A DNA stretch of 64,000 bases. Source: a bacterium. Lineage in GTDB: Bacteria > UBA8248. The position numbers and the translations under genes are program-made. Positions within the stretch are counted from its first letter, which is position 1, and each line of letters starts with the position of its first letter. Of this stretch, positions 45,164 through 62,769 are shown one piece after another. The notes under the pieces were generated by a model, which was given only the letters and a program-made list of their open reading frames with translations, ran no database searches and had not been told where the DNA came from. The stretch lies in the NCBI GenBank assembly GCA_965219955.1, contig OZ244799.1, positions 1,888,001-1,952,000 on the forward strand, written 5' to 3'.

Positions 45164-46582
45164 TCAAATCTGCCAGTCGCCGCCCAGGGCGAGAAAGAGG
45201 TTGACGCGCTGCTCCAGCGCGAGGCGCCGGATGGAGAGCTTGTTGCTCTTCGCTGAGAGCACGCGCTGTTGGATGGCCAGCAGGTCGATCAGGGCGATTT
45301 CGCCTTCCTTGTATCGGAGTTGCGCGATTCGATGCGCTTTTTCCGCTTCGCTCAACGCGACGCCGAGCGCCTCCTCGCGCCGGGCGAGCGTGCCGGCGAG
45401 GTCGAGGTTGGTTTCCACCTCGCTGAACGCGCCCAGCGCGGTTTGGGCGTACGCCGCCAGGGCCTGTTTTTGCTCCGCCGTGGCGATTTCCACCTGCGCT
45501 CTTCTCACGCCGCCGTCGAAGATGGGGGCCAGCAGGTTTCCCACGAGCCGCCAGGCGATGTTGGCCGGATCGACGATGTTCGACAGGGCGTTGGAGGTGC
45601 CGCCGATGTTGCCGGTCAGACTCAACTGCGGCAGGCGCGCGGCCTTCGCCTGTTTGAGGGCGTTGAAGGCGGCGGCGACGCGGCGTTCGCCCGCAATGAG
45701 GTCCGGCCGCCGCTCCAGTATGTCCGAGGGTACGCCCGGCGGCGGCATGGGCGGCAGCGGCGGGAGCGCCGCGCGTACGGCGATATCGCCTTTCGGGTAG
45801 CGTCCCAGCAGCACTTCCAATGCCCGCAGGGCCTCTCTCTCTGACGCTTCCAGCGCGATCAGTTGTTCGCGGGTGGACGCCAAATCGGATTTCGCCAGCG
45901 CGACATCCTGGGCGGTAGCGAGGCCGTTCTCGTATTGCACATTGATGATGCGGACGGTTTCTTTGAGCGATGCGAGGATTTCCCTCAATATGGCCGTTTG
46001 CCGCCCCGCCTCGATGGAGATGAAGTAGGCTTTAGCCGTCGCCGCCGCCAGGGAGTGCTGCGCGTATTTGTAGTCGGCGGCCGCGGCTTCGGCGCTTGCG
46101 ACGGCGGCGCGCCGCCCCGCGCCGATGCGCCCCCACAGGTCGACTTCCCAGTTCAATTGGACCGAGAGCGAGAGGTTCGAGGTCTCGGGCGCGGCGCTCT
46201 CGAGCGCGCCGGCGCGCGAACCGGCGAAGGCCAGTTTCACCTGGGGCTTCAGTTGCGCGCCGGCCTGAACGGCCAACGCCCGGGCGCGCTCCACGTTCGC
46301 CGATGCGGCCATGAGGTCGCGGTTGTTCGCCAGGGTCTGCGCGACGAGTTCGTTCAGCCGGGCGTCCCCGAAGGATTTCAGCCAACCGACCCGCCTCGCG
46401 CTTCTGAGCTGCGTTTCGTCCACGCTCGTCGCCCAGGTTTGCGGCGTGAACGTGGTTTCGCGCGCGATTTTGGCCTTGACGGCCCGGTCGTCGCGGACCT
46501 TGGCGCGGCCGCAGCCGGTCAACGCGACCAGAACACATACCGACAACACCTGAACGGGCAGGAGCGGCCTTTTATTCCGCAT
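45164..46582 (-). CDS. RND efflux outer-membrane factor (NodT/TolC family lipoprotein)
   Basis: Lipobox LTGC; WEVDLWGR, RRPDLIA, PIFDGG, LFLALGGDW. Confidence 0.93.
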   Translation of the reverse strand: MRNKRPLLPVQVLSVCVLVALTGCGRAKVRDDRAVKAKIARETTFTPQTWATSVDETQLRSARRVGWLKSFGDARLNELVAQTLANNRDLMAASANVERARALAVQAGAQLKPQVKLAFAGSRAGALESAAPETSNLSLSVQLNWEVDLWGRIGAGRRAAVASAEAAAADYKYAQHSLAAATAKAYFISIEAGRQTAILREILASLKETVRIINVQYENGLATAQDVALAKSDLASTREQLIALEASEREALRALEVLLGRYPKGDIAVRAALPPLPPMPPPGVPSDILERRPDLIAGERRVAAAFNALKQAKAARLPQLSLTGNIGGTSNALSNIVDPANIAWRLVGNLLAPIFDGGVRRAQVEIATAEQKQALAAYAQTALGAFSEVETNLDLAGTLARREEALGVALSEAEKAHRIAQLRYKEGEIALIDLLAIQQRVLSAKSNKLSIRRLALEQRVNLFLALGGDWQI

Positions 46583-46585
46583 CGC

Positions 46586-49500
46586 TCACGGCTCCCTCGA
46601 CTTCTGTCGGACGGATTCGGAAAACAAGGCGTAGAGCACCGGCGCGATCACCAGCGTCAGCAGCGTGGCGAAGGTGAGTCCGAATACGAGCACCACGGAC
46701 ATCGACTTGAAGAACGCATCGAAATACAACGGCATCACCCCCAGCACGGTCGTCAGCGCGCCCATCATGACGGGGCGGACGCGGCCGGCCGCCGCATCGA
46801 CCACGGCGTCGAAACGCGGCTTGCCCTCGCCGATCTCCAGATCGGTCTGATCGACGAGCACGATGGCATTCTTGATCAAGAGCCCCGACAAGGACAACAG
46901 GCCCAGTATCGCCATGAACTCCATGGGCGTGCCCGTCGCCAGCAGCCCGACGACCACCCCGATGATGGCGAGCGGCACGACCAGCCAGATCACGACGGGC
47001 TGCCTGACGCTGCCGAAAAGGATGAACACGACGAGTACCATGGCGAGGAAACCCAGCGGGATGGTCGAGGCCAGGTTTTCGTTGGCTTCGCTGGAATCGC
47101 CGTACTCCCCGCCCCATTCGAGCCGATGGCCCTCGGGCAGGTCGATGGCTTCGATCTTCGGACGAAGGCGCGCGAGGAGATCCGCAGGCAGTTCGCTCGG
47201 GTAGGGGTCGCTTTGCGCCTTGATTCGCCAGACGCGGTCCTTGCGCCGTACCAGGCCGTCGCGCCATATCGTCCGGAAGCCTTCGGTCACCTGGGCGATG
47301 GGCACCGCTCTGCCCGTGACCGAACTCAGCACCTGAATGTTGCGGATGTCGTCGATATCCACGCGCTCGTGTTCGGGCGCGCGGGAGATGATCGGGACCA
47401 GTTCGTCCTTCTCGCGGTAGACGCCGACGACACGCCCGGAAAAGTTTCTCTGGAGGGCCTGCGCGAGGTCCTCGCGGGAGACGCCCGCGCGCCGTCCGGC
47501 GCTTTTCGCATAAACGGGTTCGATCACGCTCACCGGCTGGCGCCAGTTGTCCTTTATCGAGAGCGCACCGCCGTCGGCCGCCATGACGGCCTTGGCCCGG
47601 TCCGCCAGGGCGCGAAGCGCCTTCGGTTCGGGCCCGCTGAACTCGGCCTCGATTTTCGACCCGCCGCCGGGCCCCAGCACGAAGCGCCACACCTTCCCCT
47701 GGGCTTGGGGAAAGGCGTTTTCCACGTGTTCTTGAATCTCGGGCATCAGGGCGTCGATCATCTTGTAGTCGTACGTGCGCACCAGCAGTTGTCCGAAAGC
47801 CGGGTTCGCGGACTCGGGGGTATAGACCAGCATGAATCGCGGCGCGCCGGCCCCGATGGACGCCTGCACCGCGCTGACCCCTTCCAGACCCGCGACGAAC
47901 TTCTCAAGCTCCGTGATGTCGCGTGCGGTCCTTGAGATGTCCGTCCCCTCGGGCAGCCAGTAGTCCACGACGAACAGCGGCGTGGTGGATGCGGGGAAAA
48001 ATCCGGACTTGACGAACTTAAATCCCCACGCCGAGGCGAGGAATATGCCCAGGGTGCCGATGAGTACGACGATGCGCATTCTGAGTGCGAAGCGCAGAAA
48101 CCATTTGTATGCCCGCAAGAAGCCACTCTCACCCCTCTCACCGCGGCCCGGGGGCTGCGCGGGCTCTCTGAAGAGCCAGAAGCAGAACAGCGGCGTCAGC
48201 GTGATGGCGAATACCCAGCTGCACATGAGTGAAATCAGGATCACCCAGAACAGATGGCCGGTATACTCGGCGGTGGAGCCGGGGGCGAAGCCGATGGGCG
48301 CGAAGGCGATGATGCCGACCAAGGTGCCTCCCAGCAGCGGCAAGACGGCGCGCTTGACGATGCGGTTCGCGATTTCGAGTTTCTTCGCGCCGCCCTGGAC
48401 GCCGACGAGAATGCCCTCGGTCACCACGATCGCATTATCCACCATCATGCCCAGGGCGATGATGAGCGCGCCGAGTGAGATGCGGTGCATGGGAATATCG
48501 ACGGCGTGCATCGTCGCCAGGGTGGCGAAAATCGTCATCAGCAGGATCGCGCCGATCACGACGGCCGACCTCAGCCCCATGAAGATCAGCAGCGTGACGA
48601 TGACGATGACCAGCGCGGCGACCACGTTGACGACGAAGACCTGTACCGATTCGTCGACGATTTTTCCCTGGTGGTAGAATTGATGGAGCTCGACGCCCAG
48701 GGGGCGAAACCTCTCGCCGTCCGCGATTTTTTCGTCGATGGCCGCGCCGATTTTTACGATGTTCCCGCCCGATACGCCCGAGACGCCCAGCGCAACCGCC
48801 GCCTCACCGTTGTAGCGATAGAGTTTTTCCGCAGGCTCGCGGTACCCCCGCCACACGCGCGCGATGTCCTTCAGAAAAATTACTTTCCCCTTGTTGTCCG
48901 AGGACACGAGAAGGTTCCGGATCGCCTCGACGGAGTCAATCGACCCCGTGGGATCGATCACGATACGCTGATCGCCGATTTTGACGTCGCCGGATGCGAC
49001 GACGGCGTTTTGCCGCGCGAGGGTGTCGTAGATGTTGGATATGGAAAGCCCCAGGGCGGTCGCGTCCTGCCGGGAGATCTCGACGAAAATCGCTTCCCTC
49101 CTCAGTCCGTCCAGCGTTACGCGGGCGACGCCTTCCACTTCCAGCAGCGCGCGCTGCAGGGATTTGCCGTAGCGCTTGAGTTCGGCGGGCGAATAACCAT
49201 CGCCCGTAATGAAGTAGAGCAGACCGAAGACGTCGCCGAAATCATCAGCCACGTAAGGCGTTTCCGCGCCGGGCGGCAGGGCGCGGGCGGCGTCGTTCAC
49301 CTTGTTGCGCAGCTTGGTCCAGATGAGCTGAAGGTCGGTTTTGGTGGGTGAGGCTTCGTATTTTATCTCCACGTTGATTTCGGATTTTCCCGCGGTGGAC
49401 ACCGACTCGATGGAATCGACCTCCGCCAGTTGCTGGATGGCCTTCTCTAGGGGTTCGGTGATTTCGAACGCGACCTCGTGGGGGCCGGCGCCCGGGTAGT

Positions 49501-49648
49501 TCGTGACGACGAGCGCCTGGCGGATGATGAATTCCGGATCCTCGAAACGCGCCATGTTCTGGTAGGCCGACCAGCCGCCCGCAATCGTCAACGCGATGAC
49601 GATGACGCTTAACACGGTGTTCTTGATGGTGAATTCGGCGATTTTCAT
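46586..49648 (-). CDS. RND efflux permease (AcrB family)
   Basis: EDPEF, GMMVDNAIVV, GLLIKNAIVLVD, RVRPVMM; 1020 aa. Confidence 0.95.
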   Translation of the reverse strand: MKIAEFTIKNTVLSVIVIALTIAGGWSAYQNMARFEDPEFIIRQALVVTNYPGAGPHEVAFEITEPLEKAIQQLAEVDSIESVSTAGKSEINVEIKYEASPTKTDLQLIWTKLRNKVNDAARALPPGAETPYVADDFGDVFGLLYFITGDGYSPAELKRYGKSLQRALLEVEGVARVTLDGLRREAIFVEISRQDATALGLSISNIYDTLARQNAVVASGDVKIGDQRIVIDPTGSIDSVEAIRNLLVSSDNKGKVIFLKDIARVWRGYREPAEKLYRYNGEAAVALGVSGVSGGNIVKIGAAIDEKIADGERFRPLGVELHQFYHQGKIVDESVQVFVVNVVAALVIVIVTLLIFMGLRSAVVIGAILLMTIFATLATMHAVDIPMHRISLGALIIALGMMVDNAIVVTEGILVGVQGGAKKLEIANRIVKRAVLPLLGGTLVGIIAFAPIGFAPGSTAEYTGHLFWVILISLMCSWVFAITLTPLFCFWLFREPAQPPGRGERGESGFLRAYKWFLRFALRMRIVVLIGTLGIFLASAWGFKFVKSGFFPASTTPLFVVDYWLPEGTDISRTARDITELEKFVAGLEGVSAVQASIGAGAPRFMLVYTPESANPAFGQLLVRTYDYKMIDALMPEIQEHVENAFPQAQGKVWRFVLGPGGGSKIEAEFSGPEPKALRALADRAKAVMAADGGALSIKDNWRQPVSVIEPVYAKSAGRRAGVSREDLAQALQRNFSGRVVGVYREKDELVPIISRAPEHERVDIDDIRNIQVLSSVTGRAVPIAQVTEGFRTIWRDGLVRRKDRVWRIKAQSDPYPSELPADLLARLRPKIEAIDLPEGHRLEWGGEYGDSSEANENLASTIPLGFLAMVLVVFILFGSVRQPVVIWLVVPLAIIGVVVGLLATGTPMEFMAILGLLSLSGLLIKNAIVLVDQTDLEIGEGKPRFDAVVDAAAGRVRPVMMGALTTVLGVMPLYFDAFFKSMSVVLVFGLTFATLLTLVIAPVLYALFSESVRQKSREP

Positions 49649-49700
49649 GGCGCGGCGCAGTCGATGAGGTGGGTCGGGCCGGGTGGTCGATTCGGGCGCA

Positions 49701-50771
49701 TCATTTCCACTCTCTGATCTTCATGCCCTCCGAGAGATAGGCCGCGCCCGCCCCGGCGATGGTTTCCTCGGCCGCGAGCCCCGCGGTGACGACGACCGTC
49801 TCGCCCACACCCTCTTCGAGCGTGACGGCGCGCTTCGATACCCGCATCGTTTTCCTGTCCACAGCCCAGACGTAGTTGTTCTTCCCGTCGCTGGTCACTG
49901 CGGCCAGCGGCACCGCCACGCGCGGCGTGCGCGCCTTGTTTTCGATTCGCAACTCCACGTTGGCGTTCATGCCGGGCAGGACGAGCAGGTTTTCGGGAGG
50001 ACGGAAGGCGAACGTGACCGCGTAGGTCTGGGACGCCGTATCCGCCAGAAGCGTCGCCTCCTTGAAGGCGGCCCTGATGCGCCGGTCCGGGGCCGCGTCC
50101 AGTATGACGAATGCCTGCTGATTCCTTTTTTCGGCGGTCTTTCTGGGAATCCTGGCCAAAAAAGCGGCGGGCAGATCGATGGCGGCTTCGAACGAGTCGC
50201 CGCTCATGAATTTGACGACGGCCTGGCCCGGCGACACGTTTTGCAGTTTCCTCACCATCGTCTGCGCGATCAGCCCGTCGAAGGGCGCGCGCAGCACGGA
50301 GTCGGCCAGCGTCTTTTCGGCGTGCTCGAGCTGCGCCCGGCTCACGTCCCGCTGGGTCTTGCGCTTCTCCAGCACGGTGCGCGCGATGGCGTCCTGCGCC
50401 GCCAGGCGAACCGCGCGCCGATATTCTTTCTCCGCGTTTTGGTATTGCGACCTGGCCGAGGCGAGGGCGGAGCGGAAATCTCGCTGATCCAGTCTGGCGA
50501 TGAGCGCGCCGCGCTTAAGGCGCTGCGCATCCCGGACCGGGAATTCGCGCAGCATCCCGCCCACCTGGAGGCTGAGCTCGGACAACCGGCCCGCACCGAT
50601 CACCGCCGGGAAGCGGCTCACCCGCGCCCCGCCGGCCGCCTTGACCGTGATCAGCTTGACCGGACGCACGGCCGGGGTTCTGCGCTTCGTTTCCGGGGCG
50701 TCTTCGCAGGCATATAGGAACAGAGCGAGGAACAAAACGACGCACGGGCCGAAGCGGATTCTGGCCGACAT
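49701..50771 (-). CDS. RND efflux periplasmic adaptor
   Basis: RPVKL, LIARLDQRD, LRAPFDG, LPGM, VPLAAV. Confidence 0.93.
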   Translation of the reverse strand: MSARIRFGPCVVLFLALFLYACEDAPETKRRTPAVRPVKLITVKAAGGARVSRFPAVIGAGRLSELSLQVGGMLREFPVRDAQRLKRGALIARLDQRDFRSALASARSQYQNAEKEYRRAVRLAAQDAIARTVLEKRKTQRDVSRAQLEHAEKTLADSVLRAPFDGLIAQTMVRKLQNVSPGQAVVKFMSGDSFEAAIDLPAAFLARIPRKTAEKRNQQAFVILDAAPDRRIRAAFKEATLLADTASQTYAVTFAFRPPENLLVLPGMNANVELRIENKARTPRVAVPLAAVTSDGKNNYVWAVDRKTMRVSKRAVTLEEGVGETVVVTAGLAAEETIAGAGAAYLSEGMKIREWK

Positions 50772-53543: not shown

Positions 53544-54698
53544 GTGAGTGGCTCCGCGCACCGGGAAGTTCCGGAGATTACCCTTGGGGTGGAGGAAGAG
53601 CTGTTTCTCGTCGACCCCGACACCCGCGACCTTCTGGCCGAACCGGACCCGGGCATCCTCGCGGCCTGCGAGAGGAGGCGCGGCCCTCACAAGGTGGTGC
53701 CCGAATTCCTTCGCGCCCAACTCGAAACCAACACACGCGTCTGCGGCTCGGTGGCCGAGGCGTGCGAGGCGCTGCGCGAGACCCGGCGGGTCGTTATCGA
53801 GGCGGCCGAGGAGCACGGCGCGGCCGTGATGGCCGCCTCCACGCATCCTTTCGCGCAATGGCGAACGCAGCTGGTCACGCCGAAGGAGCGCTACGAGCGG
53901 TTCGCGGCCACCTATCAGGAGAGCTTCCGCCGGATCTGCCTGACCGCCATGCATGTCCACGCCGGCTTCGGCGACCCGGAATCGCGCATCCGGGTCATGA
54001 CGTCGCTGCGGAGGCACCTTCCCCTTTTCCACGCGCTGTCGACGTCCTCGCCGTTCTACGGCGGGGGCGAGACCGGCTTGAAATCCTGGCGGCTGAACCT
54101 CCTCGGCGTGCTTCCGCGCACCAGCATTCCCGGCCCGTTGCGCACCCGGGCGGAATACGACCGCATCGTGGAAGACTACCGGCGCATCGAGGTCATCAGG
54201 GACGGCAGCGAAGTGTGGTGGGACATCCGCCCCTCCCACGCTCACCCGACGATAGAGCTTCGCATATGCGATACCTGCCCGCGCCTCGAGGACGCCGCGA
54301 GCATCATCGCCCTCTACGCCTCCCTGATCCGGTGGCTGGCGCGCCTGGACCGCGAGGGCCGCCTCCCGCCCGAGCCGCCCACGGAGATTATCGCCGAGAA
54401 CCGCTGGCTCGCCCAGCGATACGGTGTGCTGGCCTTTCTGGGCGACATGGACCTCGGAGGGCGGGTGGACATCGAGGACTACGCAACGGAGCTGATCGGG
54501 AAACTCTCCCCCGACGCCCGGGCGCTGGCGTGCGAGGATGAAATGCGCCACGTGCTCACCATCATCCGGGAGGGCAGCAGTGCGGACCGGCAAGCCGATC
54601 ATTTCCGTCTTTGCCGCCTGAATGGCGACAACCGCGAAGAGGCCATGCGCTCCGTGGTGGATATGGTGCTCGCCGAAACCCGGGAGGGTGTCCTATGA
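53544..54698 (+). CDS. Carboxylate-amine/glutamate-cysteine ligase (GCS2/YbdK family)
   Basis: TLGVEEELFLVD, ASTHPF, MHVHAG, ALSTSSPF, WWDIRP, TIELRICD. Confidence 0.93.
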   Translation: MSGSAHREVPEITLGVEEELFLVDPDTRDLLAEPDPGILAACERRRGPHKVVPEFLRAQLETNTRVCGSVAEACEALRETRRVVIEAAEEHGAAVMAASTHPFAQWRTQLVTPKERYERFAATYQESFRRICLTAMHVHAGFGDPESRIRVMTSLRRHLPLFHALSTSSPFYGGGETGLKSWRLNLLGVLPRTSIPGPLRTRAEYDRIVEDYRRIEVIRDGSEVWWDIRPSHAHPTIELRICDTCPRLEDAASIIALYASLIRWLARLDREGRLPPEPPTEIIAENRWLAQRYGVLAFLGDMDLGGRVDIEDYATELIGKLSPDARALACEDEMRHVLTIIREGSSADRQADHFRLCRLNGDNREEAMRSVVDMVLAETREGVL

Positions 54699-55438
54699 AC
54701 TTTCGGACGGCTCGACATGAAATCAGGACCTCCACCAGAACGCACTCCGGTTTTCATTCCGATAGAAACGGACCCTCCGAAGGCCGAACCTTCGATGTCG
54801 ATGACGTGGGGAATATGTGCGTGTGAGCCCCGGATGCATTTGCTGATTTGGAAGGCGAGACGTATTCCGGCGAGTTGGTGAAGGTTTGGAAAACCGAACA
54901 ATCGGGCGCGTCCACCCCATCGAATACCGAACGGTAACGATTCGGCGGCAGGGTGATGGACATGCTGAAACTGGTGCCTGCATGAGGTATTGTCCGCAAG
55001 CAGTCAGACCAACTCAGTGCCCTAACCACTTCGGCAGTGCGAGGATATTCTGGTGGTACCGATGAATCTCACTGATCGTGGGGATATTGACCTCCATCGT
55101 TAACACTCATTCAGGAGAGTCCGTGGTCCGCTCTATCACCCCACCCAGCGAACGGACACATCGAAACACCTCACCAACACCTCCTATTGTAGAAGACAGG
55201 CCTAAGCCCGACAGGCTTATAGCCCAAATCGGTTTGAACAAGAGATGTTTGCTCGTCCTGTATGGGTTTCCCCCTGCTGATATTCGCCTTTGCAAACCCG
55301 CGCGCTTGGCGATGTGTCCCTTGACGCGAGGCCTTCGGAATCGCTAGTTTGAATTTGTAGCCTGTTCTACCTATTTCTACCGCCACCGAAATTTTTCATT
55401 TCTGCACGCAACGAGGTTCCGATCTCGAAGAGGGTGGG

Positions 55439-56561
55439 ATGAATATCAAAAAAAATTTGAGCCGTATCGCGCGTCGCAAGGGCGCCATGCAGGCTGAATC
55501 AGAAGACCGGCATGAGATTCCGCCTCCGGCGGCCATCGAACCGTTCGTTCCGAATACGACGGGAAATTCGGAAGCGAAGGGGTTTGGTTCGCACCAGGAA
55601 CTGGAATTGATCGCTTCCGGAGAGACTGCGCCAACCGATTCGGCGAACGGCGTGGACTCGGTTGATGGAGGCGATGCTCCCGCTCTGGAGGCATTGGTCG
55701 AGCCGGTCCCGGATGAGTCGCCGGATGCTCCCGAGCCGCCTCTTAAAGCAGCACCGTATGAGGAATATGCCCTCGAACTGGAGTTGCTGACTGAGACGGA
55801 ATCAAAAGCATCGCGGAAAGAAACGGGGTCGTCTCAGAACGATGAATTTGCGGCCCCGGAAGCAATCGATAACTTTGAGGAGGCGTCTGCGTCAGAGGCG
55901 GGAGTGCCACAGGAGACCGAGTCTGAGGCCATGGACGAAATCACTAAGGAGGAGGAACCCTTGGCGCCGGTCACGGATGAGTCGTCGTCGCAGAGTGATG
56001 CAGCGTCGTATGAGGAATATGGCCTCGAACTCGAGTCGCTGATCGAATCGGAATCAGAAGTCTCGCCGGAAGAGCCGGAACCGTCTCTGGATGAATCGTC
56101 TCTCGAAGAAGCCGCTGCCGAGGATAAGGAGATACTGACGGCGTCGGTTTTGCAAGATTCGCCGGATGAAGACGAACCGCCGCTCGTAGACGAAGAAGCA
56201 GACTCGGAGATAGCCGAAAGCGTCGCTGAAGCTACTGCACCTGAACCGGAAATCTCCAAGGAGAGTGAGCCTGCGGAAGATATCACGGAGGATGTTGGGG
56301 GATCCCCTCGCGGCTGCAGTGATACAAGACTCGCCGGATGAATCCCTGGAGCCCGCTCTCGCGGAGAACGGTATTTTCCCCCTCGTGCGGGATGCTCGCG
56401 GCACTTGGCGGTCCGGCAAGGGATTCAGCCGGGGGGAATTGCGCGAAGCGGGCCTGAGCCTCGCCGATGCCTCACGCCTGCATATCCGCTTTGACAAGCG
56501 TCGTCGCAACACGCACCCGGTGAACGTCGCATCCCTCGAACAAGCCAAGAGCGGCGTTTGA
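55439..56561 (+). CDS. Acidic repeat protein with a C-terminal ribosomal protein eL13 (L13e)-like domain, split by a +1 frameshift in a G5 run
   Basis: ORFs 55439..56341 and 56265..56561 join if one G is removed at 56297-56301. C-terminus PLVR...RSGKGFSRGELREAGLSLADASRLHIRFDKRRRNTHPVNVASL. Confidence 0.75.
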
Positions 56562-56590
56562 GGGGCATGAACCGGCATTGAAAGGAAGCA

Positions 56591-56760
56591 ATGATGAGCG
56601 AATTAGTATTGGAATTCAAAAATTATCACGGATCCACCGAATACGATGAGGAAAACAAAACCCGGCATGGCAAGGTTCTCCCCACGTACGGGATTTGATT
56701 CCCTGCGAAGGCGAAACCGCCAAAGATTTGAGAAGGCGTTTCAGGATTCGATGAACGAGC
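56591..56760 (+). pseudogene. HicB-family antitoxin remnant
   Basis: AAAGGA SD. LEFKNYHGSTEYDEENKTRHGKVL, then frameshifted RDLIPCEGETAKDL...AFQDSM. Confidence 0.65.
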
Positions 56761-56816
56761 ATGGGTGCGTCCATACAAGTTTGCGGTCCGCTCTATGACC
56801 TCACGACCGAATCTCC

Positions 56817-56837
56817 GGCCGGGTAGGCGGGGGCATT
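56817..56837 (-). repeat. Exact 21-nt copy of the group II intron 3' terminus
   Basis: ggccgggtaggcgggggcatt is identical to 61937..61957. Confidence 0.75.
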
Positions 56838-56885
56838 CCCGGAGGAGAGCGAACGAATACCCTTGATGGCGGATGGGTAAGACGT

Positions 56886-57737
56886 TCACTTTCTCGCGCC
56901 ATATGCGCCCATGAGATCGCTGGTTGAGAACGTGCCGCCGACTTCCTCATGGTTCGGCCCGTAAAATGTGCCGTTGATGTTTCCCCAATCGAAAGTCCCG
57001 TTATTTTCGACACTGCGGTTGCGCCATTCGATATTCTCGTAGCTCCCACCCGTGCTTCTGCCTCTGATATTCGTGAAGGAAACATCCATCCGGGCATCAA
57101 CGGCGGACGCCCTGAATTCGAGCCGGGCATCCCCTTCGAGATGCTCTCCCCTGTTCTCTTCTGACGAATCCACCCCCAGCATCACGCCCTCGTAGGTGGC
57201 CGATGTCGCCGGAACACTTCTTGACTTGTTTCCTGCAGACATCCCGAAGCCCATTTCGAAATGAATGCCTTGGATGGTGGTCTCACCCACGAATGCTCCG
57301 AAAAGATTGTGACCCATCCATGCGCCATAACCTTCGACATTCACATCGCCATCATCCATCGGAATGGTTTGGGATGCGCGGTATAATTCAACACCATTCC
57401 TGCCTGCGATTCCGGCGAGCTGAAAGTCATCCGAGATCGAATCTTCCGCATCGATAAAGTCTCCTATGACGAATCGACCTGAATACCCCAATTGTGCATT
57501 GCTCGTGACGCAACCATCGGGAGAGCAGGTGGTGTCAATGGGGAAATCCACCGCCGCTCCTTGTTGGTCTCGGCCATACAGGTACATATCGCTCATCAGC
57601 AATAGCGCATCGTGATTCAACTGGTTGAGTTTGTACGCATCAGGCATTATTTCAGGTTGTTGTGACATCCCGGAGCCGCCACCGCAACCGAGCGCAAGAA
57701 CCGCTACCAAGGAAATTGCCAGAATGTTCCTGATCAT
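56886..57737 (-). CDS. Lipoprotein with TbpB/fHbp-like barrel
   Basis: Lipobox ALGC-GGGS; SATYEGVMLG...GDARLEF...MDVSFTNI...GTFYGPNHEEVGGTF...GAYGA. Confidence 0.82.
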   Translation of the reverse strand: MIRNILAISLVAVLALGCGGGSGMSQQPEIMPDAYKLNQLNHDALLLMSDMYLYGRDQQGAAVDFPIDTTCSPDGCVTSNAQLGYSGRFVIGDFIDAEDSISDDFQLAGIAGRNGVELYRASQTIPMDDGDVNVEGYGAWMGHNLFGAFVGETTIQGIHFEMGFGMSAGNKSRSVPATSATYEGVMLGVDSSEENRGEHLEGDARLEFRASAVDARMDVSFTNIRGRSTGGSYENIEWRNRSVENNGTFDWGNINGTFYGPNHEEVGGTFSTSDLMGAYGARK

Positions 57738-57988: not shown

Positions 57989-60900
57989 CTAGAAGCGCAT
58001 CCTAAGAGTCACCCGCCCGGCGTATTCCGAATCGTCGGAACCCAGGCCATACACCGACACCTCGCCGCCGAGCGAGAAGCGGCCCTTGCGGTAGACGCCG
58101 CCCAGCCCGAACAGGAACCGCGTCTCGGGCGATTTCGATACGAGCCTCTCTCCCGACACGTCGACGGCAGTCTCCGCGTCGCCGAGTTTCTGTTCGAGGT
58201 CCACCGAACCCCGTAGCGAGAACATCCCTCCATCCCAGGTGCGCTCCATCTTGGCCACTAATCCGACGCCGCCCGCGAGGCGCCTCGCATCATCAATAGA
58301 GAATCGAGCGCCCGCCGAGTCGTTGAATTTGTCGATGGAAACTTCCGAGCGCGTCGCCCAGGCGCGGGGCGTGAGGTTCATCCGCTCGCTCATCTTGATA
58401 CGCCTGCCTGCTTCGAGGCTCATGAGTGTGCCGCGCGAGGCGGCGTCGCGCTTCAAGGTTCCCACATCCGCGTCGCCGGAGATGATGTCCACGTCGTAAT
58501 CCGTCAGCGAGAGGCTCCCGTTCGCGTAGTAGCCGCCCGCGCCCTTCCAGGAGGCGGCCAGCGACACGCCGGTTCCTTTCGCCTTGATGTCTCCGCCGCC
58601 TGTTGGTGCGGAAACGTCCGCAGAACCCTTCACTTGGAGCAACGATATCGAGCCGGTGAAATGCTCTCCCATTCCGATGTCCAGCCCGGCTTGCGCCGTG
58701 AAGCGATTGAAGTCGTATTCCGCGCCGACGCTCGCGCGCTCAGGCTCGTACGAGCCCCTGCCGCCGGAGAGCTTTGTCCACACCGGCGAGCCGGGCGAGC
58801 GTAACCGTTCCCCTTCAGGCGCCCCGCTGTTCAGGCGAAGTAAAAAGCCGGGCAGGGCCTCGTAGAGAGCCGCGCGTGGAGCGTAGACCTCGAGAAGGTT
58901 GCTCGAGTTGCGGGCTTCGATAACACCCGCGGCCAGCTCGCCGGCGGCCTGGTCGCCGTTCGTCAGAAAATCGGCCGCCGCATTGCCCAAGCCGCCGAAT
59001 ACATACTTAACGACCCGGCCGCCGCCTTTGTGAAAAACGGACACCGCTTTGCCTGAGCCGTCGAACACACGAATCGGCGGATTCATGCAGTCCGGCGGCG
59101 TGCCGACCTGCCCTTCCGGACAGGTGGGCGGCGTCTCGATGAAATCTCCGGCGGAAAAATCCCGGTCAGCGATGACGCCCGCAGCCGGTTCGCTGATAAC
59201 CCAGTTCACCGGGTTCGAGCCGATACGCTCCGTTACGGTAACCCCTTCCGCTCTTATCGTGACATTCCACGCCCCGTTGTGAGCCACAGCGTTGGGGACG
59301 ACGCCCTTCCCGCCATCGTGAAGCATAACCTCGTTGACCACGATGGTGGTCTCTCCCCCGTCGTTGATAATCCAGTCGTCCCCGATTACGTCACGCACCC
59401 GGCGGCCGTTCAGATTCATATCGACAAGCAGCCTGGGATCATTTCCCGCTGCATGGATTGCGACCCCATACTGCGTGCGTATCGTTCCCTCGGGTCCGAT
59501 GCAGACCTCGCCCCCGGCCGGGAGATAAACACCCGCCAAGCTGTACACGTCGCCGAATATGGGCCTGTCCACCACGACCTTTCGAGGCATCGGCGGAGGC
59601 GGCGGAGGCGGCGGTGGTGGAGGCGGCGGTGGTGGAGGCGGTGGTGGCGGCCGCGTCTCGTTGAAGTCCGCCGACGAGAAATCCCGGTCGGCGACGACGC
59701 CTGCGGCCGGTTCTGTGATCACCCAGTTCGCCGGGTCCGTGCGATCTACGGTGACGCCTTCTTCTCTCATACGGACGTTCCACGCCCCGTTGCGAGCTAC
59801 CGCGTCGGTGACCGTTTCGCCGGCGTGTAGCACGGTGCCGTTGACCGCGATGGTGGTCTCTCCCCCGTCGTTGATGATCCAGTCATCGCCGATGGCCTGC
59901 GACACCCGGCGGCCGGCGAGGTTCAGATCCACACGCAGCCTGGGTGGAATGGCCGGGAGCACGTTATCCGGGTCGGTATTGTCTTCCGCTACGGTGCCCG
60001 TGGCCAGGATCGCAATACCCGAGCCTGAGCTGATGCTGCCCTGTGGCCCGATGATCACTTTGCCGCCACCGGCAAGGTACACACCCTCTGCCGCACTGTT
60101 TATTGCCCCGTTGACCGTAACGGTCTGCTCGCGATAGCCCAATGCATCCAGGGACGCCGTAAGGAATGGCATGTTATTGCTGACTGCGCCCACCTGCACG
60201 CCACGTGCGCCCGCACCGCTCACATCGATCCTGCCACCCACCGTGACGTCCATGCTGCGTCCTGCAGCCGTCCCTCTATGATAGACCACGATGCCGTGAC
60301 CATTGGGACCCGTCGTGGTGATCCTGTTATTTGCTCCCGTGGCAAGGTTGACGTTGCCGGATCCAAAGTGCAGGCCGTAAATACCGTAAGAGTGGGTCCC
60401 GGCCGTAGTGATGGTGCCCTGCGTGTCGACATGGACGTCGCCGGTACCCTCATGAAGTCCGTAAATGCCGTGGGCCGAAGTAATGGCGTTATCCTGCGAG
60501 ATCAAACCCACACTTTCCGTGGTGATGGCGTAATCGCCTTTTATGTCGATCCGGCCCTCGCCGCTTGAGCTTGCATGATGCCAGCTGAGAACGCCATGTC
60601 CCTGTGTGCCTCTTGTCGTGATGCTGCAGGGAACTGCAGGGGAGTCCGTACAGACCAGATTGATCGCCTGGTCACCTGTACCGGAATGCTGGCTAATTAT
60701 GGCATAACCGATATCACCTCCGGTCATGATTGTAGTGTCCCTGAGCGTCATGTGGACATCGCCAGGCCCGCCCTCTCGCAAGGCAAAAAGGCCGTGCGAC
60801 CTGTTCGTCGTAACGGAAATCCCCTGGGTCAGGAGAGTGATGTTGTTTACCTGGTCTGCAGTGTAATTCTCTTTTGCGATGCGGACACCGATTCCTGCGG

Positions 60901-61489
60901 TATCAATCGTCACACCGCTCCTCAAGTCCACTTCAATGTGGCCATTGCCCCTATGCTGGGCAACCAGTCCCCAGGAAGTAGTATCTTGTGTGCGGATTCC
61001 GGTATCTTCCAATGTGAAGGTGAGGGTGCCTTCACCACTCAAGTGGGCCCAGACACCGTGTGTAACTCTGCCCGTCGTGTCGATCATCGAGCGGGTGGTT
61101 GTCATGCCTGTTGTGATACCGGCGATGCTGATATCCACATCCCCGCTGCCGAGATGCGTAGCCCTCACACCCGCGTTGGTGGTGCCGGTCCCAGTCAAGT
61201 CGATATCGATACCCATCGCATCGATGTCGATATTGTTGGTCGATGTTTCACTTTCTTCACATTCAATATGATTCCCTGTGCCAGGTGTGTTGCTGCATAC
61301 AGGCGCAGCCCGCACTTCGCCTTGGGCAAAGGCAACCAGCAGAACCGAGGCGCAAAGCCTGAGCAAGACCCGCCTCAGTTCACCGGCACACCTCCGCTTA
61401 CTCGCAAATATGAGCATATGCACAGCCTGTAACGTAGAGCGCCCCAGCAAGTCAGCGGAAGAGAGTCGTGGCATATGCCTGAAGGACAT
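57989..61489 (-). CDS. Autotransporter (type Va) adhesin-like protein
   Basis: Thr/Gly-rich beta-helix-like passenger, a duplicated module, a 20-Pro tract, linker YAPRAALYEALP, and a C-terminal barrel ending LRMRF. The start is uncertain (61489, 61417, or 61679 via the repeat). Confidence 0.92.
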   Translation of the reverse strand: MSFRHMPRLSSADLLGRSTLQAVHMLIFASKRRCAGELRRVLLRLCASVLLVAFAQGEVRAAPVCSNTPGTGNHIECEESETSTNNIDIDAMGIDIDLTGTGTTNAGVRATHLGSGDVDISIAGITTGMTTTRSMIDTTGRVTHGVWAHLSGEGTLTFTLEDTGIRTQDTTSWGLVAQHRGNGHIEVDLRSGVTIDTAGIGVRIAKENYTADQVNNITLLTQGISVTTNRSHGLFALREGGPGDVHMTLRDTTIMTGGDIGYAIISQHSGTGDQAINLVCTDSPAVPCSITTRGTQGHGVLSWHHASSSGEGRIDIKGDYAITTESVGLISQDNAITSAHGIYGLHEGTGDVHVDTQGTITTAGTHSYGIYGLHFGSGNVNLATGANNRITTTGPNGHGIVVYHRGTAAGRSMDVTVGGRIDVSGAGARGVQVGAVSNNMPFLTASLDALGYREQTVTVNGAINSAAEGVYLAGGGKVIIGPQGSISSGSGIAILATGTVAEDNTDPDNVLPAIPPRLRVDLNLAGRRVSQAIGDDWIINDGGETTIAVNGTVLHAGETVTDAVARNGAWNVRMREEGVTVDRTDPANWVITEPAAGVVADRDFSSADFNETRPPPPPPPPPPPPPPPPPPPPMPRKVVVDRPIFGDVYSLAGVYLPAGGEVCIGPEGTIRTQYGVAIHAAGNDPRLLVDMNLNGRRVRDVIGDDWIINDGGETTIVVNEVMLHDGGKGVVPNAVAHNGAWNVTIRAEGVTVTERIGSNPVNWVISEPAAGVIADRDFSAGDFIETPPTCPEGQVGTPPDCMNPPIRVFDGSGKAVSVFHKGGGRVVKYVFGGLGNAAADFLTNGDQAAGELAAGVIEARNSSNLLEVYAPRAALYEALPGFLLRLNSGAPEGERLRSPGSPVWTKLSGGRGSYEPERASVGAEYDFNRFTAQAGLDIGMGEHFTGSISLLQVKGSADVSAPTGGGDIKAKGTGVSLAASWKGAGGYYANGSLSLTDYDVDIISGDADVGTLKRDAASRGTLMSLEAGRRIKMSERMNLTPRAWATRSEVSIDKFNDSAGARFSIDDARRLAGGVGLVAKMERTWDGGMFSLRGSVDLEQKLGDAETAVDVSGERLVSKSPETRFLFGLGGVYRKGRFSLGGEVSVYGLGSDDSEYAGRVTLRMRF

Positions 61490-61937: not shown

Positions 61938-62769
61938 GCCGGGTAGGCGGGGGCATTGCTGCGCCACTCCCCCCACAGAGCCGGACGTGCGGGCACTACC
62001 GCATCCGGTTCCTCACGTGTCGGGTTTGCTCAAGGACGTTGTCGCCCCTGATCCGCAGATGCCGGGAACCACAGCCCCCCGGCGCCTGGCATGGCTATCC
62101 GCCGCCGTTACGTTGACGCGAGTGACGGAGCTCAGTGTCTCCCCCGCGTGTCCCGTCAGCGGGTCCGATCACGCGGTGCCCCCCTTCCCTCGGACGGGTC
62201 CCGATGGCCACGGTTCCCCGCCTTCAACGGTAATATGAGGGCGCTACGACTCCCGACACTGCATCCATCGGACTTATTGTTTTCGCCTTTCAGTACCATG
62301 CGCGCCTGCTCTGTTCGTGCCGTCGCTCACGCGCTCCCGACGCCCCGCAGGCAGGGTATCATCGGGCCGGGGTTTGGATTTAGGGCCGGTTACACCCCCG
62401 ACCGGCCATCGTTCACATGGACAGTGCCGGGCCTCTCAGGTTCCCTGGCGACCCATCCCGTGACTTTGCAGCGTTCTACGACCCCGGAGGGTCCTGCAAC
62501 GCCTCACCCGTAGCGGCGTCTGCGGTGCAGCCCCCATGACACTTAAACACAAAGGCACCCTCGCATTACGATTTCGAGGCTCAATAGCGCTGCTTCGCCA
62601 CCCCCTGTGTACGCTTCTCGACGTGCGTTGCCGTCCGCCACGCAACACTCGGTTCCGGCTGGCTGGCATGGCCTTTGCCGCGCGGGAGTTGAACCCGCTG
62701 GGTCGCGATGAAGAGTTTCAGCGATTTCAGGTCATCACATCCTCCCTTCCAGAGCTTAGCCTGACGCAA
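61938..62769 (-). ncRNA. ORF-less group II intron (IIB-like, bacterial class D/E-type), ~832 nt
   Basis: On the minus strand it begins TTGCG. Domain I motifs gaagcgtacacaggg and attgagcctcgaaa. Domain V gaaccggatgcggtagtgcccgcacgtccggctctgtgggggg. Domain VI ends cctacccggc. Only a stop-containing RT N-terminal trace remains. Confidence 0.88.

Follow-up and report, generated by a model that had tools for sequence, protein, structure and literature searches.

Positions 55439–56561 of the 64,000-nucleotide (nt) stretch of DNA analysed here, which comes from a sponge-associated bacterium (the window; lineage UBA8248, contig OZ244799.1, positions 1,888,001–1,952,000), hold a secondary copy, disrupted by a frameshift, of an accessory gene restricted to one genus. 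The intact product of this gene is predicted to consist of a short basic N-terminal helix, ~300 disordered polyacidic residues and a 60-residue basic domain with the fold of the ribosomal protein eL13. Overall, we tentatively read the protein as a nucleic-acid-binding module that is gated by a polyacidic tail and sits in a conflict-island setting, rather than as a ribosomal protein, and put the probability of this reading at roughly 0.45. An eL13-fold domain does occur in bacterial non-ribosomal architectures, and the link of the domain to the antiphage (Druantia) helicase DruE is a specific, testable lead. The features of the window gene are as follows.

55439–56341 (+): open reading frame (ORF) A, 300 amino acids (aa), a basic N-terminus followed by polyacidic repeats (ORF translation, charge)
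55748–55842 (+): repeat copy 1 (PYEEYALELELL...), 95 nt, 77% identical to its partner copy
56000–56094 (+): repeat copy 2 (SYEEYGLELESL...), partner of 55748–55842
56139–56170 (+): VLQDSPDE repeat, frame A, 32 nt, 78% identical to its partner
56265–56561 (+): ORF B, 98 aa from a GTG (ATG at 56292), in which the gene continues in the +1 frame
56297–56301 (+): frameshift site, 5 G versus 4 G in the intact allele, +1 frame thereafter (DNA alignment to paralogs)
56311–56342 (+): VIQDSPDE repeat, frame B, partner of the 32-nt repeat above
56373–56558 (+): eL13-like domain, 62 aa (PLVRDARGTWRSGKGFSRGELREAGLS...RFDKRRRNTHPVNVASL) (Pfam, NCBIfam and Protein Data Bank (PDB) matches, AlphaFold)

Sequence comparison and structure modelling indicate homology between the C-terminal module and the conserved eL13 core. 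An earlier note on this DNA (the original prediction) had observed that the last ~60 aa follow the eL13 pattern and had proposed to check this with HMMER (Ribosomal_L13e) and Foldseek. The residues encoded at 56373–56558 indeed score above the cut-off of Pfam PF01294 (Ribosomal_L13e), and both programs matched eL13. The PF01294 match spans profile positions 41–98 of 180 (E 1.1e-7; 32.4 bits versus a cut-off of 24.9), with an intact paralog of the gene scoring 30.2 bits. The archaeal L13e model NF008914 was matched at E 4.3e-14 and 51.9 bits, under its 96-bit equivalog cut-off; all 20 short archaeal-type proteins scanned match archaeal L13e (55.9–121 bits), with one of the 20 passing that cut-off. 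Solved eL13 chains were matched as well, the best being archaeal (9e6q_AH, E 2.5e-6), followed by a microsporidian chain (6rm3, E 1.2e-5). AlphaFold modelling of a 74-residue C-terminal piece with a 46-row alignment yielded a beta-hairpin and three short helices, at a mean predicted local distance difference test score (pLDDT) of 83.6 and a predicted template modelling score of 0.70. At E <= 0.001, 49 of 49 Foldseek matches were chains from eukaryotic ribosome or pre-60S entries (template modelling scores of 0.56–0.71, normalised to the query); 15 of these chains are named in the PDB sequence matches, and all 15 are eL13. As the fold matches are all ribosomal, the model points to the conserved core of eL13 and not to a generic helical motif. 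A viral fold library gave no match to the domain at E <= 0.001. The domain is strongly basic: the 62 residues at the end of ORF B have a net charge of +7 and an isoelectric point (pI) of 11.65.

The original prediction had described one protein across 55439–56561. Its domain and acidic stalk both stand, but the single reading frame does not: two frames had been joined silently. At 1123 nt, the span is not divisible by 3, and it is covered by two overlapping ORFs in different frames, i.e. 55439–56341 and 56265–56561 (stop codon 56559–56561), ruling out a single-ORF reading. In DNA alignments, GTTGGGGGATCCCC of the window pairs with GTGGGGGAA-CCCC and GTCGGTGAG-CCCC of the paralogs and is one base longer, which fits one extra G. 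The final ~13 residues of ORF A (SPRGCSDTRLAG) are an out-of-frame tail beyond the frameshift, and the 172-nt spacing (3n+1) from VLQDSPDE to VIQDSPDE likewise shows that the frame changes between these copies. When contigs of public sequencing runs were aligned to the window, those of X6 (DNA, from a different study) and X10 (a metatranscriptome library) had one letter fewer at 56297, and those of X2 (a run possibly not independent of the source sample) and X12 contained the extra base and were otherwise identical to the window. The intact allele, which strains closely related to this one carry, corresponds to database protein P0091 (373 aa), which reads ...EDITEDVGDPLAAAVIQDSPDES... (DVGDPLAAAV across the site); the site is read through in the intact orthologues P0091, P0088, P0082, P0087, P0097, P0101 and P0095. 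Compared with these, the frame of the window copy is interrupted, as expected of a pseudogene. An assembly error as the cause was rejected, given that X2 and X12 share the extra base and X6 and X10 are without it; the frameshift is therefore read as a real strain-level polymorphism. Programmed frameshifting or phase variation at the run of 4–5 G is a remote option. A promoter and terminator scan of 54600–57000 on the + strand returned 0 promoter-like sites and no terminator. Elsewhere in the window, an efflux operon of the resistance-nodulation-division type (outer-membrane factor, AcrB-type pump and HlyD-type adaptor) is intact at 45164–50771 (−), which argues against a generally error-ridden assembly.

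The stalk is as acidic and repetitive as had been noted from the sequence. Residues 21–300 of ORF A contain 28.9% aspartate and glutamate (D+E), with a net charge of −70 and a pI of 4.05 (whole ORF A: 27% D+E, −65 and pI 4.05), and follow a basic start (net +5 over the first 20 aa). The repeats seen earlier were recovered at the DNA level, the 95-nt pair encoding YEEYALELE/YEEYGLELE and the 32-nt pair VLQDSPDE/VIQDSPDE. No Pfam or NCBIfam match was obtained for ORF A. In net charge, the N-terminus carries +5/+6, the acidic region −70 to −86 and the domain +7 to +10; the intact paralog as a whole (416 aa) has a pI of 4.08. Its AlphaFold model comprises an N-terminal helix (residues 3–14), no secondary structure at residues 15–357 and the C-terminal domain from residue 361 onward (block means 83–93), with 317 of the 416 residues below a pLDDT of 50.

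The window's genome (G000) is a single 4,283,615-bp contig with three PF01294 matches. Besides the window copy these are the intact paralog (L001:1456–2706, −), whose 416-aa ORF has the layout of the window gene, and a third copy (L003) that, judging from the assembly, is also split into two frames, elsewhere in the gene, and has substitutions in otherwise invariant domain residues (DKRRP, GRGFSG). Directly upstream of this third copy lie two tandem tyrosine-integrase genes (L027 7131–9478; G000:C1 about 1849131–1851478). The one-contig genome, the three copies and the synteny of the gene in congeners place it in a bacterial host and therefore make archaeal contamination or a chimeric contig very unlikely.

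Querying a protein database with the last 81 residues of the intact paralog, limited to candidates of 228–727 aa, recovered a family of 104 proteins with the same layout (230–541 aa; E <= 4.8e-19), 103 of them with a precomputed PF01294 match. The acidic region and the C-terminal domain are present in all 21 family sequences inspected, most of which start with MNIKKNFLSRIARRK (P0031, P0069 and P0106 are without the usual N-terminus), and an EEYGLDLE-type motif occurs at least once in 81 of the 104. Four family records, from metagenome-assembled genomes of Nitrospinota/Nitrospinae (3) and Rhodospirillaceae (1), are named 'ribosomal protein L13e' by NCBI. Among 51 genomes of the phylum, PF01294 matches were found in G000 and 17 of 22 congeners and in 0 of 28 genomes from 14 other genera; 0 of 14 control genomes had one. 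The matched frames are open over 219–550 aa in all 17 congeners. Within the acidic family the domain is under purifying selection, with a median ratio of nonsynonymous to synonymous substitution rates (dN/dS) of 0.22 and no value above 1 (244 of 276 pairs with dS > 0.3). Among 50,697 phage and 72,556 plasmid records there was no match to the family, nor was there one in viral contigs with the two patterns used; the family had no match in PADLOC (at E <= 0.01, with P0001 among the queries) or PHROGs, and P0001 and P0073 are absent from the ESM Atlas.

A non-functional relic, i.e. a decaying leftover of some other fusion such as the DruE-partner gene described below, would account for the frameshifts in two of three G000 copies, for the L003 substitutions at invariant residues and for a repeat number so variable that proteins range from 230 to 541 aa. 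We nevertheless regard it as decidedly unlikely in light of the low domain dN/dS, the open frames in every matching congener, the conservation of the N-terminal and EEYGLDLE motifs, and the presence of the intact allele among RNA-library contigs (X10), although such contigs are no proof of transcription.

By its membership features the product is not a ribosomal protein: it is not a small, basic, stand-alone protein present lineage-wide, as eL13 is. A ribosome-associated factor is a different proposal, whereby the domain docks on the cell's own large-subunit rRNA and the stalk projects from it, for instance to modulate translation or hibernation. That the fold and sequence matches are to ribosomal eL13 only, and that the domain is very basic and under purifying selection, would suit such a factor. 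The proposal is unlikely, however, for a gene that is accessory and confined to one genus, that sits in a variable junction with toxin–antitoxin genes, two of whose three copies are broken in this genome, and whose product fails the NCBIfam L13e cut-off (51.9 versus 96 bits). Moreover, the same domain ends the protein partner of a DruE helicase, pointing to a DNA-related role.

When 1.84 billion representative sequences were scanned in full by HMMER with the 74-aa domain as query, 300 matches were returned at E <= 0.001. Pooled with the proteins of the family search above, the domain carriers number 249: 108 belong to the acidic family and 80 to a second one, that of the DruE partner; 52 are short archaeal-type proteins and 9 are fusions of other kinds. 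In P0197 and P0211, a short archaeal-type L13e is fused to a C-terminal helix-hairpin-helix (HHH_5) domain. Members of the second family (including L025:5382–8174, P0109, P0110, P0125 and P0215) share a core of about 530–550 residues with globular and immunoglobulin-like (Ig-like) parts, and have a median length of 733 aa. The 13 members scanned had no other Pfam match and the 4 scanned with PADLOC had no match there at E <= 0.01 (for the L025 protein, none at E <= 0.001). On the Thermodesulfobacteriota chromosome of L025, the 930-aa partner overlaps the start of a 1404-aa helicase with DEAD, Helicase_C and MZB domains that matches PADLOC DruE1 at E 6.5e-160. The partner lies directly upstream of DruE in all three core-bearing genomes among 120 Thermodesulfobacteriota genomes searched, L025 included, and adjoins it at five of five assessable metagenome loci, two further loci ending at a contig edge. 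G023 and G025, which alone carry the core among 51 genomes of the phylum of G000, show this adjacency too. Both of these are without the acidic gene, and none of the 18 domain-bearing genomes (G000 and 17 congeners) has the partner core. The G025 partner (L045 9741–12131) retains the conserved core but ends in a different tail, acidic and helical, in place of the eL13-like domain, and in the L034 partner the domain is truncated after GKGFSLGEIK; the tail swap and the truncation together argue that the domain is modular.

The C-terminal domain is what the two families have in common. A profile comparison with hhalign aligns this domain and nothing else (probability 99.5 and E 4.7e-23 over 66 columns), at a domain identity of 48–58%, and when the 930-aa partner was searched against G000, its residues 864–926 alone found a match. 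The acidic family is without the partner's central core (RPELICR ... LPRIWWRL ... Ig-like region), and in G000 its gene is not found directly upstream of a DruE helicase. In all 25 acidic-family domains compared, a partner-domain profile outscored an archaeal-type one (median 90.0 versus 78.3 bits, gain 8.8–13.5). From these sequence comparisons, the domain's nearest relatives appear to be the C-terminal domains of the DruE-partner family, not archaeal ribosomal proteins. A quick tree placed the acidic domains in one half with 74 of 80 partner domains, at 87% support for the split by the Shimodaira–Hasegawa-like approximate likelihood-ratio test and with 6 of 156 branches starred. A direct archaeal link was not rejected by the approximately unbiased (AU) test (p 0.296).

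The primary copy of the gene sits in a variable tRNA-Asn junction with toxin–antitoxin and defence cargo. At 17 of 21 family loci of other genomes, and at the intact G000 copy, a convergent tRNA-Asn(GTT) gene lies just downstream. These 17 loci share the order FMN reductase – alpha/beta hydrolase – (UPF0175) – gene – (hicA) – hicB – tRNA-Asn – NmrA-like – DctM, with hicB present in 11 and hicA in 5. Complete hicA and hicB genes follow the intact paralog (HicB and HicA identified in L026/L001). The remaining four loci (L014, L019, L020 and L022) represent the window's type of paralog. What their neighbourhoods have in common with the window is limited to fragments of hicB, part of an integrase gene in L020 or, in L022, a gene resembling an autotransporter. 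Where congeners lack the gene, the junction is either empty (G033, 184 nt) or differently filled: in G025 (L049 1592–3235) by a protein of 548 aa that has an HNH endonuclease motif, by a nucleoside transporter, HicB and a DUF6998 protein in G034 (L050 3931–4488), and in G023 by the DruE module, which lies between tRNA-Asn and the hydrolase/FMN-reductase genes in the orientation opposite to that of the acidic gene.

Next to the window gene lie GCS2, the remnant of a hicB gene and a TbpB-like gene. Its immediate surroundings contain three further features.

54931–55156 (no strand assigned): ~225-nt repeated element upstream of the gene, with further copies at G000 4085358–4085590 and 2822726–2822943
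56571–56758 (+): hicB antitoxin remnant with hicA missing, 79% identical by blastn to the hicB region at the intact paralog
56778–56811 (no strand assigned): partial second copy (34 nt) of the 3′ end of the ~225-nt element

Within the hicB remnant, a 35-codon ORF (56591–56698) matches the N-terminus of HicB only. The gene and the remnant lie between the 225-nt element and its 34-nt partial copy, an arrangement reminiscent of insertion ends; Rfam gave no match at 54650–55450. The gene has a G+C content at third codon positions (GC3) of 0.58–0.68, compared with about 0.8–0.9 in neighbouring core genes. One of the other copies of the 225-nt element lies ~800 nt from a tRNA gene (L051). Further along the window, a lipoprotein-like ORF at 56886–57737 (−) matches a TbpB beta-barrel (GC3 0.59, lower than in core genes) and lies next to a 1166-aa autotransporter at 57989–61489 (−) with an internal duplication, a run of ~22 prolines and a GC3 of 0.71, also below that of core genes. 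The sole Rfam match in the window is to group II intron domains D1–D4 (RF02005, 136.9 bits, E 8e-39) at 62472–62691 (−).

A further alternative is an anti-defence decoy: a polyacidic DNA mimic that bears a sensor's C-terminal domain, was left by a mobile element and hampers DruE-type or other nucleic-acid-sensing immunity. The extreme acidic composition, the fact that the C-terminal domain alone is shared with the DruE partner, the location of secondary copies beside integrase genes or fragments and with a hicB remnant, and the repeats bracketing the window copy are all compatible with it. Set against these are the empty searches of phage records, plasmid records, viral contigs (two patterns) and viral folds (E <= 0.001), the synteny of the primary copy across the genus, so that no element is recognisable there, and the absence of the partner core from all 18 domain-bearing genomes, the core being confined to G023 and G025. 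On balance, we deem a decoy quite unlikely.

The original prediction had also entertained an effector aimed at host or archaeal ribosomes. As a host-directed, eukaryote-like protein, the product would be released into sponge cells, where its domain engages host ribosomes or rRNA and its repeats mimic host motifs. Sponge or marine metagenomes are the source of all carriers examined, the fold is known otherwise from archaea or eukaryotes, and the short motif EEYGLDLELL recurs across the family. Yet the one-contig genome yielded no VipB (type VI secretion), VirB4 (type IV secretion) or FHIPEP (type III secretion/flagellar export) gene, a hydrophobic signal sequence at the N-terminus is not apparent by eye, and the domain's nearest relatives are bacterial DruE partners, one of them from a Thermodesulfobacteriota genome. 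The idea of an injected effector is weakened by these observations, and a host-directed role is very improbable.

In the reading that we favour, namely a nucleic-acid-binding module gated by its polyacidic tail, the C-terminal domain would bind nucleic acid, given that the eL13 core of ribosomes is an rRNA-bound part of the large subunit. The polyacidic tail would fold back on the domain, acting as an electrostatic competitor or nucleic-acid mimic, and binding would then occur only once a better ligand or a partner displaces it. Such a protein would act in conflicts over foreign nucleic acid. In the strain sequenced here, the window copy would yield only an acidic fragment of 300 aa that lacks the domain, barring a rare +1 slip on GGG-GGA that brings back the frame.

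Several observations weigh against this reading. Nucleic-acid binding and self-gating by the tail are both steps that we infer. The frameshifts in two of three G000 copies suggest that the family may be dispensable here, and the frame of genes flanking the junction also includes ordinary metabolic ones. Searching G000 with the L025 DruE as query gave no DruE match at E <= 1e-5; the acidic family therefore works without that helicase, and its link to defence is one of guilt by association. It is only the C-terminal domain that the acidic and DruE-partner families have in common: a proposed homology of their N-terminal helices failed its test, as a hidden Markov model gave scores for 19 of the 65 real N-termini, their median being −1.1, a value reached by 23% of shuffled sequences. 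Finally, the domain tree is poorly resolved (split support 87), and the AU test did not reject a grouping of the family with archaeal-type L13e.

A bolder proposal is that the eL13 core is also a nucleic-acid-sensing module of bacterial immunity, deployed in one sponge-associated genus as a stand-alone sensor or decoy on a self-gating stalk. We consider this doubtful; if true, phage nucleic acid or rRNA might serve as its ligand, a ribosomal protein fold would be tied to antiphage defence, and which of the two uses came first would become a question.

Whatever the role, the eL13 core fold is found in two uncharacterised bacterial architectures, even though reviews of how ribosomal proteins are distributed give eL13 as absent from bacteria: Table 4 of one gives PF01294 a count of 0 in Bacteria (PMC3056875), and L13e is treated there and in a second as archaeal and eukaryotic only (PMC3056875, PMC3353972). 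In the parts of the literature on L13e/PF01294 and bacteria that our searches covered, no description of a bacterial eL13-like protein was found. The finding bears on the reuse of a ribosomal RNA-binding fold outside the ribosome and makes the automatic name 'ribosomal protein L13e' on the four bacterial records misleading. With the partner architecture beside DruE at nine of nine assessable loci examined, it also offers a testable handle on what DruE partners bind. The stake in the window alone is smaller, because the copy in it is a secondary paralog, and its frameshift is a strain-level allele.

Among known proteins, ribosomal eL13 itself (PF01294, archaeal L13e NF008914; e.g. chain AH of 9e6q, the Pyrobaculum calidifontis 50S subunit) shares the ~60-residue core with the pattern GxGFSxxELxxAGL...A..L.I.VDxRRR..H..N. 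The window family, however, covers only profile positions 41–98 of 180 and stays below the NCBIfam cut-off. Whereas eL13 is a small, basic, stand-alone protein, the core here forms the C-terminal end of a ~370-aa protein of pI 4, and the gene, unlike that of eL13, is accessory, located in a variable region and found in one bacterial genus. HMGB1, with its acidic autoinhibitory tail, and phage Ocr, a DNA-mimic protein, bear no sequence or fold relation to the window family but offer a possible analogy, in that a basic nucleic-acid-binding module is joined to, or competed by, a polyacidic segment.

Canonical DruH of Druantia type III (YjiT family), a large protein beside DruE, resembles the partner family in its analogous position and role, and the partner family's eL13-like domain also follows an Ig-like region. 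The two are set apart by models and descriptions, as neither the partner nor the acidic family has a PADLOC match, DruH models included. In two 2026 preprints, DruH is described as a DNA-binding sensor of the YjiT family (10.64898/2026.05.12.722862, 10.64898/2026.05.12.724681); the Druantia preprints of that year distinguish subtypes III-A and III-B, the latter with a compact DruE without PLD domains. The available text of both (10.64898/2026.05.12.722862 and 10.64898/2026.05.12.724681) does not mention 'ribosomal', nor that of one of them 'L13' or 'eL13'. There is also a likeness to the partner of the compact DruE in the two-gene module resembling Druantia type III. The window family differs from it in being without the ~550-residue globular and Ig-like core and without an adjacent DruE, but the two share the same C-terminal eL13-like domain, both begin with a short helix and continue into an acidic region of low complexity, and in one congener the partner occupies the very same tRNA-Asn junction.

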